64,000 nucleotides of DNA from Enterobacter phage CC31. Location: sequence record NC_014662.1. One strand, 5' to 3'. Both the position numbers and the translations under genes were made by a program. Shown here in pieces: positions 2,303-25,029 of this stretch; position 1 is the first letter of the stretch; the number at the start of each line of letters is the position of its first letter. The notes beneath the pieces are model-generated. The model did not search any database and had not been told where the DNA came from. It saw only the letters and a program-made list of their open reading frames with translations.

Positions 2303-2566
2303 TCAAATTTTCTTAACGAGAACATAACCCAATTCCTCGGCTAATTTCTTAGCTTCATTGAATTTTTTCCACATTTCAATTTTTGAATTATGAATAGCTT
2401 CATAATCAATTTTTGGTTCTGGTCTTTCAGATGTGTTGCAGATATTGCAAAATATAGAACGCTTTGGACCAATATAATTGATACCACAGTGTCTACATGT
2501 GCACATATAATCGCCAGAAGGCCAATCTTCAGGCATACTACGAGGTAGCATTAAAGTTTCCACCAT
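2303..2566 (-). CDS. hypothetical small zinc-ribbon protein
   Basis: 87 aa ORF with CxxC...CxxC cysteine pairs; followed by hairpin terminator. Confidence 0.45.
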   Translation of the reverse strand: MVETLMLPRSMPEDWPSGDYMCTCRHCGINYIGPKRSIFCNICNTSERPEPKIDYEAIHNSKIEMWKKFNEAKKLAEELGYVLVKKI

Positions 2567-2725
2567 GGTTTAACTTGGAGAGTATCAACCCATACAACTT
2601 CTTTTGGAGAAGCTTTTACTGCCGGGCCTGTGCTTCCAAGAACACGATAATGAGTTTCGGATAGTTTTACTGCCATGACTCCGTTGGAAACTGACAGAGT
2701 AAAACCTGCATTAACTTTTAAACGC

Positions 2726-3052
2726 TTAAACGGTTTCTGTACCAGCATTGATGATTTCCCATACTTGTTGGCGTGTAGTCTGCCAGTTAACACGGATGAT
2801 TTCGTCATTATAAGGTTGTTTGTAAATGTCACGCAGTTTACAGAGAGCGTACTTATATGCTTCGAAATTATTTTCGAGGACTGCGCCAGCGGCATGGTCA
2901 TTCAGTCGCTTAATTTCACGACGATTCTTTTTGAAGATTTTAGTTGCCATAGCATTTGCACGTCTCTGGCTTTCTTCTTCAATTAAACGCTTAATACGTT
3001 CTTCTTCGTTATCGTCGATTTGTTCTACGCTGTCAATATTACGTTCGTTCAT
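2726..3052 (-). CDS. hypothetical protein
   Basis: 108 aa ORF co-directional with the early gene block, charged/helical; overlapping antisense ORFs judged shadows. Confidence 0.4.
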   Translation of the reverse strand: MNERNIDSVEQIDDNEEERIKRLIEEESQRRANAMATKIFKKNRREIKRLNDHAAGAVLENNFEAYKYALCKLRDIYKQPYNDEIIRVNWQTTRQQVWEIINAGTETV

Positions 3053-3057
3053 TTGAC

Positions 3058-3312
3058 CTACTTACTTTTGTAATCAATTGTTATGCTAAAATCATTTTCT
3101 CCTAGATTATAACTGTGAGTTATCTCAGCATTATCAGAAGTGAATTCAGCGTCATGTGGGTTCTTGGGGTCGATGCGAATGTCCAAATCCAATACCTCCC
3201 TCATATACATTTTAAGCAAATAAGGGATAGCATCATAATCGGGCACTTCTTCCAGGAAACCTGCGAGGTTAATCGTCAGCCTCATATAAAAAATCCAAGT
3301 TCGGACCTTCAT
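3058..3312 (-). CDS. hypothetical protein (start probably internal to track ORF)
   Basis: 84 aa track ORF overlapping gp55 3' end; true start uncertain. Confidence 0.3.
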
Positions 3313-3802
3313 CTACAACATCGCTCTTTTTGTCAGACCCTGGCTGTTTGTAGGTGGAGGTTTCGTAATGCGTCATTTTATCGTAGATGTCTTGAATAAA
3401 AGTTTCATCTACTAACGCAACCATATCATCGTCACGAGCGTCATAGACGTTGTGAACAAAATAGCTATACTTTTTAGCAACTTCCTTACGTTCTTTCTTG
3501 ATACGTTGGACGAATGCGTTAAAGCAAGCACGGGTTATATACGCATGCGGGTTGTCGTACTTTGTTTCATCGAAGTTGTGTAGACCTTTAATAGAAGCCT
3601 CTACACCGTCTGAAATCATTTCATCTTTCCAAGAGCGGGTGTACCCCGAAAAGTTAAAACGCTTACTCAGACCCTCAGATATCAACATAATTGCTCTGCC
3701 GATAGTATCATTCTGACGAACGGGTTTACCAGCTTCGCGACATTGCTGTTTCCACTCAGTGATGGCTTTCAGCAACTCCTTATTATTTACATAGTTAGCC
3801 AT
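3269..3802 (-). CDS. 55: gp55 late-transcription sigma factor
   Basis: 177 aa; [11 protein letters not shown]...[26 protein letters not shown]...[28 protein letters not shown] closely matches T4 gp55 as recalled; ATG with GGAAGAGG RBS. Confidence 0.93.
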
Positions 3803-4165: not shown

Positions 4166-4413
4166 AGGTCAAATATCCTAAAAGTATCTTCGATTAAAGT
4201 CTTGAACGTATTGAAATGCATAGGTTCAAGGTCTTCACATGTTTCTTCACAGAATTCACGATAAAGAATATCTGGAGTGTAATCACGGAAGATAGCAATA
4301 TCAGATTCCCAGTAAGCACCAGTTTCTTCATCAGAGAAATAAACGGTACCATCACGACGAATAACCCAGTCGCCGTAGTTCAATACTGTGATAGTGAATT
4401 GATTATATTTCAT
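4162..4413 (-). CDS. hypothetical protein
   Basis: 83 aa ORF, 4-nt start/stop overlap with neighbours. Confidence 0.4.
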   Translation of the reverse strand: MKYNQFTITVLNYGDWVIRRDGTVYFSDEETGAYWESDIAIFRDYTPDILYREFCEETCEDLEPMHFNTFKTLIEDTFRIFDL

Positions 4414-4637
4414 AGGATAAGTTCCTTAGCACATTCAATAGCTTCATCCATACTTCCGAATGCATCTACTGAGTGATAATCTTTCCCAGTGTATTCATAA
4501 ACCCACCAGGCGTCAAAATCTTCTTCAATAACGAAATCAACATCGTTCTTTGAAGTACCTTCAATCATTAGGCGGCCGTCTTCAGTACGCTTTGTTTGAA
4601 ATCCGGCTAACTGTAAATCACTTTCAATTTTATTCAT
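4410..4637 (-). CDS. hypothetical protein
   Basis: 75 aa ORF in coupled array. Confidence 0.4.
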   Translation of the reverse strand: MNKIESDLQLAGFQTKRTEDGRLMIEGTSKNDVDFVIEEDFDAWWVYEYTGKDYHSVDAFGSMDEAIECAKELIL

Positions 4638-4899
4638 CGAGGTACTCCTTCAGTTCTTCCTCTGTCATTCCTTCTTCCCACATATGATAAAAAGGATAAT
4701 CCACACTTCTATCTTGAACTGGGAAATATCTAACTTGGAAATTTTTGTTTATCATTTCGCATGCTTTGAGATAATCAACAGCATTATTGATATCTTCCCA
4801 ATTGGTTCCAAAGACGAATCTAGCGTGCAGTTTAGCATGCCAAACGTCTATTTTATGAGATATCAATATGATAACACTTATGCCTTCGTTCATAACCAC
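4630..4899 (-). CDS. hypothetical protein
   Basis: 89 aa ORF in coupled array. Confidence 0.4.
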   Translation of the reverse strand: MVMNEGISVIILISHKIDVWHAKLHARFVFGTNWEDINNAVDYLKACEMINKNFQVRYFPVQDRSVDYPFYHMWEEGMTEEELKEYLDE

Positions 4900-5204
4900 T
4901 CCTCTTTATAACCAGGCACAGTCAAATGGATTTCATAACGTGAACGATGACCGTGATGAAGATGAAATTCCATATGAGCCTTAGCACCCATAAAGAAACC
5001 AATAAACATTTCAAGGTCCATTCTTGTTTCAATCATATCTGGCAAAGGCCAGATGAGTTGATTGCTACCTTTAAGCTTAATTGCTTTAAGACTTGGACCA
5101 AATTCCCGGCATAATTTCACCGGAACATAACGCTTATTTGAAGTAAAATCAGCATAAGGCTTGAATCCAGGGTCACATTTGAAGTAGACCTTGACATTTA
5201 TCAT
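4890..5204 (-). CDS. hypothetical protein
   Basis: 104 aa ORF, His-rich segment (HLHHGHRSRYEIH). Confidence 0.4.
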   Translation of the reverse strand: MINVKVYFKCDPGFKPYADFTSNKRYVPVKLCREFGPSLKAIKLKGSNQLIWPLPDMIETRMDLEMFIGFFMGAKAHMEFHLHHGHRSRYEIHLTVPGYKEEWL

Positions 5205-5539
5205 TTGGCGGCCTTGACAATTTTAAGGTCAACGAATCCTTTCTTACGCTGGTTCTTCATCTTACGGATAGTGCTATCAGAGATTTCTTTACGCTTTATA
5301 GTTGGAATACCGAAAGCATCAAGATTAAATTCAGACAGAATGTAAGCAACAACCAGTTCACGGATACGAGCTTTACCAATTTTCTGGTCATTTTCTTTCA
5401 TCGTACCGTGCAGTTCAACTTCCCACTTATCCAGCAACTTAGGAGTCACGATAACGTCTTTGAACTCACCATCAACTTTCATTGCTTCCACCTTCGGGAA
5501 TACGAAAGCGTTCAGTACGTTTTTGATAGCCTGTGACAT
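5201..5539 (-). CDS. hypothetical protein
   Basis: 112 aa ORF. Confidence 0.4.
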   Translation of the reverse strand: MSQAIKNVLNAFVFPKVEAMKVDGEFKDVIVTPKLLDKWEVELHGTMKENDQKIGKARIRELVVAYILSEFNLDAFGIPTIKRKEISDSTIRKMKNQRKKGFVDLKIVKAAK

Positions 5540-22704: not shown

Positions 22705-22950
22705 TTATTTAAAGTTTTTGGAATTGGTCATATGAGGTATTGTAACCTGCAACCATGAAAGCAATTTCTCAGCTTCTTCTTTAAGAAGCTCAACTTCTTC
22801 ACCCTGAGAAATGATGGTGAGTACATCTTTCTCATCATTGACAAGGAGAAGAGTTTTAATATTAGCGTGTCCACCATGAACTGATTCAGCTTCATAGCTG
22901 ATAGTAGCATCTAAACCTGGGACTTTCCAATCTAACGTACACTTAGCCAT
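22705..22950 (-). CDS. hypothetical protein
   Basis: 81 aa ORF. Confidence 0.35.
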   Translation of the reverse strand: MAKCTLDWKVPGLDATISYEAESVHGGHANIKTLLLVNDEKDVLTIISQGEEVELLKEEAEKLLSWLQVTIPHMTNSKNFK

Positions 22951-23233
22951 TTGCTTGTTCCTTGCGAGCTCGTTCTTTAAGTTGCTCTTGAATTTTGAGC
23001 ATTGTTTCTGTGTATTCTTCTGAATTAGCTCTTACAATTCTAGAAGAATACGGAAGCGATTCATGATATTTCAAAAATCTCTCAAGACGCGGTTTGTATT
23101 GAGTAGAGAAATTGTACATCAAAAATCCTGTAGCACTTACGTGAGTACAAATTTCATATTGAATTCCGTCGTATTGACGAGTAACAATAATGTCTTTTAG
23201 CTCAAGACTTAGGCTCATTGACTTCTCCTGCAT
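22943..23233 (-). CDS. hypothetical protein
   Basis: 96 aa ORF. Confidence 0.35.
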   Translation of the reverse strand: MQEKSMSLSLELKDIIVTRQYDGIQYEICTHVSATGFLMYNFSTQYKPRLERFLKYHESLPYSSRIVRANSEEYTETMLKIQEQLKERARKEQANG

Positions 23234-23408
23234 AAAGTTTAAGAATGAAAAACGCTACCTTTAAAGCCTCTTCTTTACTTAAACGAAGAGGAGAGCCGGC
23301 ATAACATGCTCCTTCAGGGACGGCATGCTCCAAAACAATTTCATCTTCTTTAGTGCGAATGTCTAAACTTCCTAGATGAAATTGTTCATATCCCCAAGGG
23401 TCTTTCAT
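23202..23408 (-). CDS. hypothetical protein
   Basis: 68 aa ORF. Confidence 0.3.
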   Translation of the reverse strand: MKDPWGYEQFHLGSLDIRTKEDEIVLEHAVPEGACYAGSPLRLSKEEALKVAFFILKLYAGEVNEPKS

Positions 23409-23698
23409 TGCATTTCCTTAATAGCTTTTAAGAAGTTATCAAGATTCTTTTTACTGCAAAAAGATACGCAGCCATAGCTTCCATCTTTTGCTTCAAAAGT
23501 AAATGAATCATCACCATAATCAGTGTAATCAATATTAGGACATTGATTACATTCAATCAGATGTGCTTTGTCCAGACGAAAATGGATTTTGAACAAATCT
23601 TCATCATCTACATGACCAAGTTTGCAAAAGTTTCCACGTACTTCAAGAACCAGAGGACCATGTACTGAACCGCTTTCAAATGTATGTTTCATAATCAC
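23405..23698 (-). CDS. hypothetical protein
   Basis: 97 aa, Cys/His-rich (C..H..C..C) possible metal site. Confidence 0.35.
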   Translation of the reverse strand: MIMKHTFESGSVHGPLVLEVRGNFCKLGHVDDEDLFKIHFRLDKAHLIECNQCPNIDYTDYGDDSFTFEAKDGSYGCVSFCSKKNLDNFLKAIKEMQ

Positions 23699-23964
23699 CT
23701 CAGCTGTGAATCTTTTGAACCGCGTCTGTTGTAAGACGCTTTAATAATAGTGTCATGTGAGCTTTGGCAAGCTACGCATCGGGTGCATCCTTTTTGAGCT
23801 TTGCGTCTAGCTTCCGGAATTTCTCCGTCACAATCTTCACAGTATTTTTCGCTCTCACGATTTTGAGATTTGATGAGCTCTAAACGAGCCCATTCAATTC
23901 CATCACTTACTGTAGCTTCAATAGCTGCAAATCCGTCGTCACTTGGACCCCATCCACTTGCCAT
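23695..23964 (-). CDS. TraR/DksA-type C4 zinc-finger protein
   Basis: 89 aa; CEDCDGEIPEARRKAQKGCTRCVAC (CxxC-x14-CxxC) typical of TraR/DksA family. Confidence 0.5.
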   Translation of the reverse strand: MASGWGPSDDGFAAIEATVSDGIEWARLELIKSQNRESEKYCEDCDGEIPEARRKAQKGCTRCVACQSSHDTIIKASYNRRGSKDSQLR

Positions 23965-23987
23965 TACAAACTCCTTTGAACGAGGTC

Positions 23988-24018
23988 CATTATACCATTA
24001 ACCAAGTTGTATGTAAAC
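23988..24018 (-). promoter_or_regulatory. sigma70-type early promoter (GTTTAC -35, TATAAT -10)
   Basis: Minus strand reads GTTTAC-N18-TATAAT immediately upstream of 23695..23964. Confidence 0.55.
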
Positions 24019-24098
24019 AACGGATTGTGGTATTGAACAAACAGATAAAGCAGTACAAATACCGTTCTCATTACCAGCCTGCCGTATCAAATTCACCA

Positions 24099-24595: not shown

Positions 24596-24632
24596 TTAAA
24601 AACAACAAAAGCCCTGACCAAAAGTCAGGGCT
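24596..24632 (-). terminator. rho-independent terminator
   Basis: Hairpin AGCCCTGAC-N5-GTCAGGGCT followed on minus strand by TTTTGTTGTTTTT. Confidence 0.65.
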
Positions 24633-24636
24633 CAAA

Positions 24637-25029
24637 TTATTCCAAAGACAGCAAGTATTTGGTTTGAAACACTATGCCATTGATTTCATCAATTGTGTTT
24701 CTGATTGCTCCGGGCATCTTCTCATAGATGCTTTCAGCTTTTGCTGTGATGCTATCGAGCATCTCAATTGTGTCAGTAGGCAAATCCTGTTGCGAAGGTA
24801 TAGATGGAGTGTACTTTTTACCAGACCATCCAAGCCATTGCTCTCCGAACTTGTCGGTTAACTCAGGGATTGCATCAAAGAAGAAATTGTATGCTTTGTG
24901 ACGAGCATAACTTTTAGTTTCAAAATGAGCTGAATGGAAGTATGACGCAGAAGCCATCAAAAGACCAATGAACTCATCCTCTGGAAGTTTCTTTCCGGTT
25001 GTTATGAAATCTTCAAATTTCGTTTTCAA
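24637..25029 (-). CDS. hypothetical protein
   Basis: 130 aa ORF. Confidence 0.4.
   Translation of the reverse strand: MKTKFEDFITTGKKLPEDEFIGLLMASASYFHSAHFETKSYARHKAYNFFFDAIPELTDKFGEQWLGWSGKKYTPSIPSQQDLPTDTIEMLDSITAKAESIYEKMPGAIRNTIDEINGIVFQTKYLLSLE

Follow-up and report, generated by a model that had tools for sequence, protein, structure and literature searches.

Does a T4-like phage encode a small protein that reaches into the secondary channel of the host RNA polymerase (RNAP)? This question is raised by a short gene of Enterobacter phage CC31, which we studied within a stretch of 64,000 nucleotides (nt) of the phage sequence (record NC_014662.1; hereafter "the window", with positions counted from its first letter). 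T4-like phages are the textbook example of the stepwise capture of host RNAP, through Alt, ModA, AsiA, MotA, Alc, gp55 and gp33, and to our knowledge a secondary-channel factor is not part of this picture. An earlier note on the same DNA had read the product of the gene as a zinc-finger protein of the TraR/DksA family, DksA-like in kind, that could retune host transcription early in infection. Judged by its profile and structure matches, the product of 23695..23964 is a member of the YbiI branch of that family, with YbiI as its closest relative and TraR as the next one. As to function, the reading that we favour, at a probability of roughly 0.5, is that this YbiI-branch zinc-ribbon protein would be expressed early and would bind the RNAP secondary channel broadly in the manner of TraR, without a need for guanosine tetraphosphate (ppGpp).

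Family, zinc ribbon and gene

Membership of the TraR/DksA C4 zinc-finger superfamily, as proposed in the earlier note, was borne out by Pfam PF01258 (zf-dskA_traR), which scored 39.1 bits against a gathering cutoff of 24.9 (E-value 7e-10), and by a match to PHROG_54, "DksA-like zinc-finger protein" (1e-18). The branch is indicated by the NCBIfam YbiI equivalog NF008243 (PRK11019), which aligned residues 1-89 of the protein with positions 1-88 of its 88 (2.3e-25), at a score of 88.8 bits that lies slightly under the curated cutoff of 96. The best match in the PDB is 2KGO, the nuclear magnetic resonance structure of Escherichia coli YbiI, over the full length (5e-15), followed by TraR in its RNAP complexes (6N57 and 5W1S; 2e-5). 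Profile-profile alignment (hhalign) of the YbiI-like family with TraR gave a probability of 99.1% over residues 19-74; the TraR profile used here was narrow, because a word-indexed homolog search yielded only the close F-type TraR proteins from which it was built. Conservation was counted over 122 aligned homologs, whose sources are phages, Alphaproteobacteria and Gammaproteobacteria. Two YbiI signatures that we derived from this alignment, an N-terminal M-x-x-G-W and a C-terminal N-R-R-G-S-K-D-S-Q-L-R-COOH, are both present in the phage protein and are invariant or nearly so among the 122 sequences, with Gly4 and Trp5 found in 120-121 of them; the C-terminal tail (N79-R89) is without a counterpart in TraR or DksA.

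The assignment to the family is already public and carries no novelty as genome annotation. Proteins 100% identical to this one have been deposited (for example, KKP_3262 and vB_Ent31), and among the orthologs the product names in use are "DksA-like zinc-finger protein", "putative zinc-finger containing protein YbiI" and "TraR/DksA C4-type zinc finger protein".

Of the five cysteines in the protein, four (C42, C45, C63 and C66) are invariant in the 122 homologs and pair in the alignment with C37, C40, C58 and C61 of TraR. The fifth, at position 60, is not conserved: this position is Val in 98 of the 122 sequences and Cys in 13, all 13 of them from the phage clade. The finger of the family is therefore CxxC-x17-CxxC. 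The CxxC-x14-CxxC string pointed out in the earlier note does exist (C42, C45, C60 and C63), but it is not the family finger, as it counts in the non-conserved C60 and leaves C66 aside; nor is an x14 spacing typical of TraR/DksA proteins, since the 122 homologs and TraR itself show x17.

The gene itself is an ATG-to-TGA reading frame of 89 amino acids on the minus strand, whose ends in the open reading frame (ORF) list of the window are exactly 23695 and 23964 and whose product is MASGWGPSDDGFAAIEATVSDGIEWARLELIKSQNRESEKYCEDCDGEIPEARRKAQKGCTRCVACQSSHDTIIKASYNRRGSKDSQLR. It is preceded by a ribosome-binding site (Table 1), and it differs from the ortholog in phage myPSH1140 by eight synonymous and no non-synonymous changes. 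These synonymous-only changes and the profile matches place the ORF well beyond chance, and on their evidence the gene is real and under purifying selection, in agreement with the 89-amino-acid product named in the earlier note.

The near-consensus sigma70 promoter described there (GTTTAC-N18-TATAAT) also held up. If TTTACA is taken as the −35 (TTTACA-N17-TATAAT, with a TG extension), the site agrees with the consensus at 11 of 12 positions, and none of the other sigma70-like sites between 21 and 27 kilobases (kb) of the window scores as high. Chance would give 0.04 copies of the exact GTTTAC-N18-TATAAT string in the 64 kb, where one is present. GTTTAC as a −35 hexamer is what we take to be the T4 early promoter consensus. 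The leader from this promoter would be about 15-20 nt long. In myPSH1140 the promoter is nearly the same, with one spacer base changed, and a Jiaodavirus retains the −35 part, GTTTACATA, with a degenerate −10. A TGCTTTA string at 24046-24052 (minus strand), about 28 nt 5' of the −35 hexamer, matches what is presumably the core of the T4 MotA box; no convincing −10 was seen at the distance expected from it, and the string is perhaps there by chance.

Table 1. Positions in the window of the YbiI-like gene, its expression signals, the parts of its product and the gene that follows it
Feature	Position	Strand	Basis
Coding sequence, 89 amino acids, YbiI-type TraR/DksA-family C4 zinc-ribbon protein	23695..23964 (stop included)	−	ORF and profile matches
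Shine-Dalgarno sequence AAAGGAG, 6 nt 5' of ATG	23971..23977	−	read from sequence
Sigma70 / T4-early-type promoter, GTTTAC(A) −35, TG-extended TATAAT −10	23989..24018	−	promoter scoring
N-terminal tip, residues 4-12, GWGPSDDGF	23929..23955	−	homolog alignment, hhalign register, AlphaFold2
Long N-terminal helix, residues 10-34, net acidic, comparable to TraR N-helix 2-27	23863..23937	−	AlphaFold2, Foldseek
Zinc ribbon, residues 42-66, C42-x2-C45-x17-C63-x2-C66	23767..23841	−	122-homolog alignment
Invariant C-terminal tail, residues 79-89, NRRGSKDSQLR-COOH	23698..23730	−	122-homolog alignment
Next gene, 95 amino acids, PHROG 23838, function unknown	23405..23692	−	ORF list and PHROG match

RNA polymerase as the presumed target

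An AlphaFold2 model built on a 121-sequence alignment (mean predicted local distance difference test, pLDDT, of 79) shows residues 1-9 as coil (pLDDT ~60), residues 10-34 as one long helix (86-93) and, after the zinc ribbon, a short helix (64-70) followed by coil over residues 71-89 (52-62). Foldseek matched this model to YbiI in the PDB at 9e-6 and to RNAP-bound TraR (6N57_M) at 2.4e-4, with a template-modelling (TM) score of 0.52 and a root-mean-square deviation of 3.5 Å over 65 columns, and to DksA marginally (E-values of 0.07-0.2). The coiled-coil hairpin that the earlier note expected is absent from the model, as it is from TraR itself, and the architecture, a single N-terminal helix and a zinc ribbon, is therefore TraR-like and not DksA-like. 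The model, together with the scores of 14-15 bits against the DksA profiles, rules out a DksA-like coiled-coil protein, and the protein is better described as YbiI/TraR-like.

The zinc ribbon carries the residues with which TraR contacts RNAP. Its segment I49-P-E-A-R-R-K55 is identical to TraR I44-K50 and belongs to the most conserved positions of the family; P50, E51, R53, R54 and K55, which are invariant or nearly so, correspond to TraR P45, E46, R48, R49 and K50. In the globular C4 domain of TraR, R48 sits on the beta' rim helices, with P43 and P45 also required for binding, and E46, R49 and K50 contact beta'Si3 (PMC6970531, PMC9239242).

For the N-terminal part, we took the register relative to TraR from the hhalign alignment, extended without gaps beyond residue 19, and found it to agree with the HMMER alignment. 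In this register D9 stands at TraR D6, E16 at E13, G22 at G19, I23 at I20 and R27 at R24, and D10, G11 and F12 fall approximately on E7, A8 and Y9. Since D9 coincides with D6 and the helix residues align with those of TraR, the register of the helix and the second Asp of the DxxDxA tip motif are kept. The acidic tip named in the earlier note is thus found in part: D9 takes the place of TraR D6, but the first Asp (TraR D3) is Gly6 and the Ala is Gly11, at a position that is Ala or Ser in close phage relatives, and Gly4-Trp5 fall on TraR M1-S2. In TraR, the N-terminal helix (residues 2-27) brings the DxxDxA tip to the active site, with Ser2 at 4.3 Å from the catalytic Mg2+ (Chen et al. 2019, PMC6970531), and the C-terminal helix (residues 58-73) binds the beta lobe-Si1 (Chen et al. 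2019; Gopalkrishnan et al. 2022).

In the favoured reading, unmodified host sigma70 RNAP would transcribe the YbiI-like gene, as the first in a string of small early ORFs, from its T4-early-type promoter soon after infection. The protein would then most likely use the TraR mechanism, independently of ppGpp: its acidic N-terminal helix would enter the channel and bring Asp9 near the active-site region.

Phage precedents exist for such a factor. Every one of the five phage TraR homologs assayed binds RNAP, inhibits promoters of rRNA and of ribosomal proteins and complements a dksA-null strain (PMC9239242). An incomplete DxxDxA is found in two of the five; P2 Orf82 and X. bovienii Gp34, in which the motif is likewise not complete, are less active but still able to bind RNAP (PMC9239242). 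Lambda Orf73 slows host growth and raises burst size and phage yield (PMC9239242). In addition, overexpression of E. coli YbiI, which had been found by BLAST with TraR, rescues the amino-acid auxotrophy of a dksA-null strain, and not that of a relA spoT strain (data not shown in the source; PMC2613031). These precedents, together with the full-length match to 2KGO, the alignment with TraR, the superposition of the AlphaFold2 model by Foldseek and the identity of the IPEARRK segment, argue for the proposed action on the RNAP channel, as does the recurrence of the gene in plastic early regions of many T4-like genera. We infer from this analogy that the phage protein binds host RNAP, which it probably does, and that it shifts promoter activity in one direction or the other; the retuning of host transcription suggested in the earlier note is plausible.

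Several observations weigh against this reading. The NCBIfam TraR equivalog gave 30 bits against a cutoff of 108, and the DksA equivalogs TIGR02420 and NF033459 gave 15.1 bits (cutoff 115.5) and 14.3 bits (cutoff 105). The tip reads G6-P-S-D9-D-G11, with the second Asp of DxxDxA only, and in place of a TraR-type C-terminal helix there is a helix of about seven residues (64-70), followed by a linker and a non-TraR tail. Docking identical to that of TraR would be crowded, because the N-terminus is three residues longer than that of TraR, whose Ser2 already lies 4.3 Å from the Mg2+. Some C4 TraR/DksA-like proteins without the tip motif and the C-terminal helix are not DksA-like in action (PMC9239242). 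For YbiI itself, Blankschien et al. favoured a role in iron metabolism, given the fiu-ybiX-ybiI cluster (PMC2613031), and published RNAP-binding data exist for no protein of the YbiI family; on the function of YbiI or PA4870, the literature offered nothing beyond a single remark marked "data not shown", a description of the operon and a table from genomic SELEX (systematic evolution of ligands by exponential enrichment). That expression is early is deduced solely from the sequence of the promoter. The TraR model leaves the Gly-Trp tip and the C-terminal peptide unexplained, and they probably add or alter a contact.

One alternative keeps the channel and changes the action: the protein would plug the channel or the active site, or would exclude DksA, GreA and GreB, as a blocker or competitor comparable to Rnk and Gfh1. 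We regard this as unlikely. It takes its cue from the Gly-Trp pair in place of the first acidic tip residue, from the three extra N-terminal residues and from the basic tail, which is tethered by a variable linker (residues 72-77). The docking face (IPEARRK) is TraR-like but the warhead is altered, with W5 placed where TraR has the S2 that lies 4.3 Å from the catalytic Mg2+, and Rnk provides the precedent of a channel binder that merely competes (PMC9239242). Moreover, neither G4-W5 nor the tail varies between Alphaproteobacteria and phages, which indicates a specific function that has no counterpart in TraR. However, the reported rescue of dksA-null auxotrophy by YbiI (data not shown) requires a positive, DksA-like activity, and D9 is kept at the position of TraR D6, a conserved acidic residue of DxxDxA.

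It is also doubtful that the protein works away from RNAP altogether, with the zinc ribbon as a scaffold and the C-terminal peptide, with or without the Gly-Trp, binding another host machine or serving as the substrate of a host enzyme; bacterial YbiI proteins would then serve in stress or in metal homeostasis, and the phage would have borrowed one of them. The most conserved elements, the GW pair and NRRGSKDSQLR, are indeed those lacking a TraR or DksA counterpart, and C4 proteins of this superfamily that are not DksA-like in action are known, as noted above. In E. coli, ybiI is part of the Fur-controlled fiu-ybiX-ybiI iron cluster (PMC2613031), and genomic SELEX placed a strong RpoS-holoenzyme site before it (PMC5493296); in Serratia it lies between what are probably dps and glnH, and in Sphingopyxis beside a DUF1328 gene. 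Yet these bacterial neighbourhoods are not conserved and indicate no partner, the PADLOC search returned no match for the protein, and nothing in the globular domain is better conserved than the TraR-type RNAP-contact residues, a pattern difficult to account for if the protein did not bind RNAP.

Very unlikely, finally, is a protein that is active only in complex with a second small phage protein, after the example of TraR_VP882, which together with the adjacent QisA forms a complex that arrests host growth and needs the RNAP-binding motif of TraR_VP882 (bioRxiv 10.64898/2026.07.27.740977): the candidate would be the 95-amino-acid product of the translationally coupled ORF 23405..23692, which begins 2 nt past the stop of the YbiI-like gene, but no homolog of that ORF lies within 2.5 kb of the YbiI-like gene in the five other genera examined (Jiaodavirus, Slopekvirus, Lasallevirus, Dhakavirus and Asteriusvirus), bacterial YbiI genes are solitary, and the lack of any neighbour conserved alongside the gene weakens the idea.

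Should the phage protein bind RNAP as we propose, host takeover by these phages would gain a TraR-like layer independent of ppGpp, and the widespread bacterial YbiI family would receive its first function. Of moderate interest in its own right is the wide spread, in virulent T4-like phages, of a YbiI branch with an invariant Gly-Trp tip and C-terminal peptide.

Spread of the gene and its neighbours

The region around the gene is 95-96% identical in DNA sequence to Aeromonas phage PS49 and to Enterobacter phage myPSH1140. The latter is classified under Straboviridae, Tevenvirinae, Karamvirus, and the window is that of a T4-like Karamvirus. When 1.84 billion cluster representatives (50% identity) were searched with the family profile, 476 clusters matched at an E-value of 1e-10 or lower and 3408 at 1e-3 or lower. 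Its bacterial members, 87-88 amino acids long, come from Pseudomonas, Serratia, Erwinia, Brenneria, Yersinia, Sphingopyxis and Caulobacteraceae, and have a MASGWAxDGAVQ... start and the same C-terminal tail as the phage protein.

Among phages, tblastn found a homolog in 705 records. The T4-like carriers are Karamvirus, Jiaodavirus, Slopekvirus, Lasallevirus and other Acinetobacter phages, Aeromonas phages and Dhakavirus, and the jumbo-phage carriers are Asteriusvirus and Erwinia phages. In the window the gene lies in the tk - rI - rI.-1 ... nrdC.11 region, a plastic early block of T4-like phages, so that its placement in an accessory early block of a phage genome was rightly made in the earlier note. 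Karamvirus, Jiaodavirus and Dhakavirus have it between rI.-1 and nrdC.11, and in Acj61 it adjoins nrdC.10/11. In the Klebsiella phage Miro (Slopekvirus; stretch 2501-3790) it lies directly 5' of the DNA primase gene, with a gap of 3 nt; the annotated ribosome-binding site of the primase there falls within the end of the YbiI-like gene, and a nucleoside triphosphate pyrophosphohydrolase gene is near, a context unlike that in Tevenvirinae. T4 positions 1-62,000, which include the syntenic slot, hold no homolog, and the slot is occupied by mobD.1-mobD.5.

Compared to the bacterial proteins, the phage clade has a three-residue insertion after the N-terminal helix, the extra C60 and an SDDGF tip with an Asp in the register of TraR D6. 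The best bacterial relatives of the phage protein are only ~52% identical to it and come from mixed taxa, and an old phage lineage is therefore favoured over recent capture from a host.

A second genuine subtype was seen in Escherichia phages JS10 (stretch 1501-1758) and PBECO4 (stretch 1001-1258). Its members begin with MAVGF, with Phe for Trp, and end in FKR(E/P)PRNCWHRSMR in place of NRRGSKDSQLR. This subtype is common to a T4-like Dhakavirus and an unrelated jumbo phage, and its tail is no frameshift of the usual one. Other alternative tails, met in metagenomic representatives, were rejected as mostly frameshifted or shortened ORF calls; QPPRQQGQPAAL, for example, is the +2 frame of the tail DNA. 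In the Acinetobacter phage Acj61 (stretch 2504-2770), the position of the fourth zinc ligand is His (YCIKHQCEHD) and another Cys follows two residues on, and this homolog could be a variant with a three-cysteine, one-histidine (C3H) or a shifted finger.

A more far-reaching idea, which we offer tentatively and hold to be improbable, is that YbiI-type proteins may be mechanistically distinct RNAP effectors, with TraR-like docking, the aromatic Gly-Trp tip at the catalytic centre where TraR would bring its first acidic residue, and the tethered tail on a second conserved site of RNAP or of another host machine; several T4-like genera would have adopted them for early takeover, and the FKRxPRNCWHRSMR tail of JS10 and PBECO4 would be a variation.

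The neighbourhoods of bacterial ybiI genes differ between Pseudomonas, Serratia and Sphingopyxis, and because they are not conserved no partner can be inferred from them; in Sphingopyxis, the homolog adjoins the DUF1328 gene. In Serratia marcescens (stretch 4357-5267), it lies directly 3' of a gene for a 167-amino-acid ferritin-family protein, whose size and place make it a probable dps, and 5' of a cluster that resembles glnHPQ by its domains. The Serratia context and the RpoS SELEX peak of E. coli hint at a stationary-phase or stress protein for bacterial YbiI.

In the window, the ORF 23405..23692 follows the YbiI-like stop so closely, with its ribosome-binding site inside the end of the YbiI-like coding sequence, that the YbiI-like gene heads a run of small co-oriented ORFs; the terminator scan found no terminator-like site downstream before ~22.5 kb. 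Neither this coupled ORF nor the g100-like ORF on the upstream side is linked to the gene in other phage genera; both were rejected as a conserved partner, and 23405..23692 therefore counts as co-transcribed and its product at most as a candidate partner. The same transcription unit includes ORFs at 22943-23233 (minus strand), with the Pfam "Phage tudor domain" (PF24144, 5e-30), and at 22705-22950 (minus strand), with the "y05I-like putative transcription factor C-terminal domain" (PF24448, 3e-18). These matches suggest that the block may hold several small factors directed against host machinery. PADLOC gave no match for the neighbours either, and membership of the YbiI-like gene in a defence system was rejected on this empty result.

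On the other side, a terminator-like hairpin at 24609-24633 (minus strand; 11 pairs, 6 of them G-C, then a T-run) lies just past the rI.-1 homolog and divides it from the g100-like ORF and from the transcription unit of the YbiI-like gene. This homolog of T4 rI.-1 (24637-25029, minus strand; Pfam DUF5856, PHROG 858) is named "starvation-inducible transcriptional regulator" in RefSeq and PHROGs; no match in the PDB or NCBIfam backs this label, which looks unsupported. For the same lack of PDB and NCBIfam matches, a link between the rI.-1 homolog and Dps, an idea taken from the adjacency of dps and ybiI in Serratia, was found unsupported.

Comparison with known systems

The phage protein most resembles E. 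coli YbiI (2KGO), with which it shares the length of 88-89 amino acids, an end-to-end alignment, the identical N-terminus MASGW, the identical C-terminal YNRRGSKDSQLR and the CxxC-x17-CxxC finger with its IP.ARR segment. The two are, however, only ~46-52% identical, the phage clade has the insertion S33-Q-N35 and Cys60, and the tip is D(G/D)AVQ in YbiI and SDDGF in the phage protein.

With F-plasmid TraR and its phage relatives lambda Orf73, P2 Orf82, VHML Orf8 and VP882 Orf61, the common ground is a small protein made of one N-terminal helix followed by a C4 ribbon. The phage protein has the IPEARRK segment of TraR unchanged and an Asp at D6, and both are products of mobile-element genes with early expression, predicted from the promoter in the case of the phage gene (PMC9239242). 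In contrast to TraR, the phage protein has an incomplete DxxDxA, is 16 residues longer, carries a Gly-Trp N-terminal extension and has a shortened C-terminal helix, with a linker and an invariant tail instead; and whereas TraR proteins occur on temperate phages and a plasmid, the YbiI-like gene belongs to a virulent T4-like phage.

DksA shares with the phage protein the PF01258 zinc-finger domain and, presumably, the RNAP secondary channel as its target. It differs by its coiled-coil hairpin, which the phage protein does not have, and by a length greater by about 60 residues. By analogy with TraR, a dependence on ppGpp is not expected for the phage protein.

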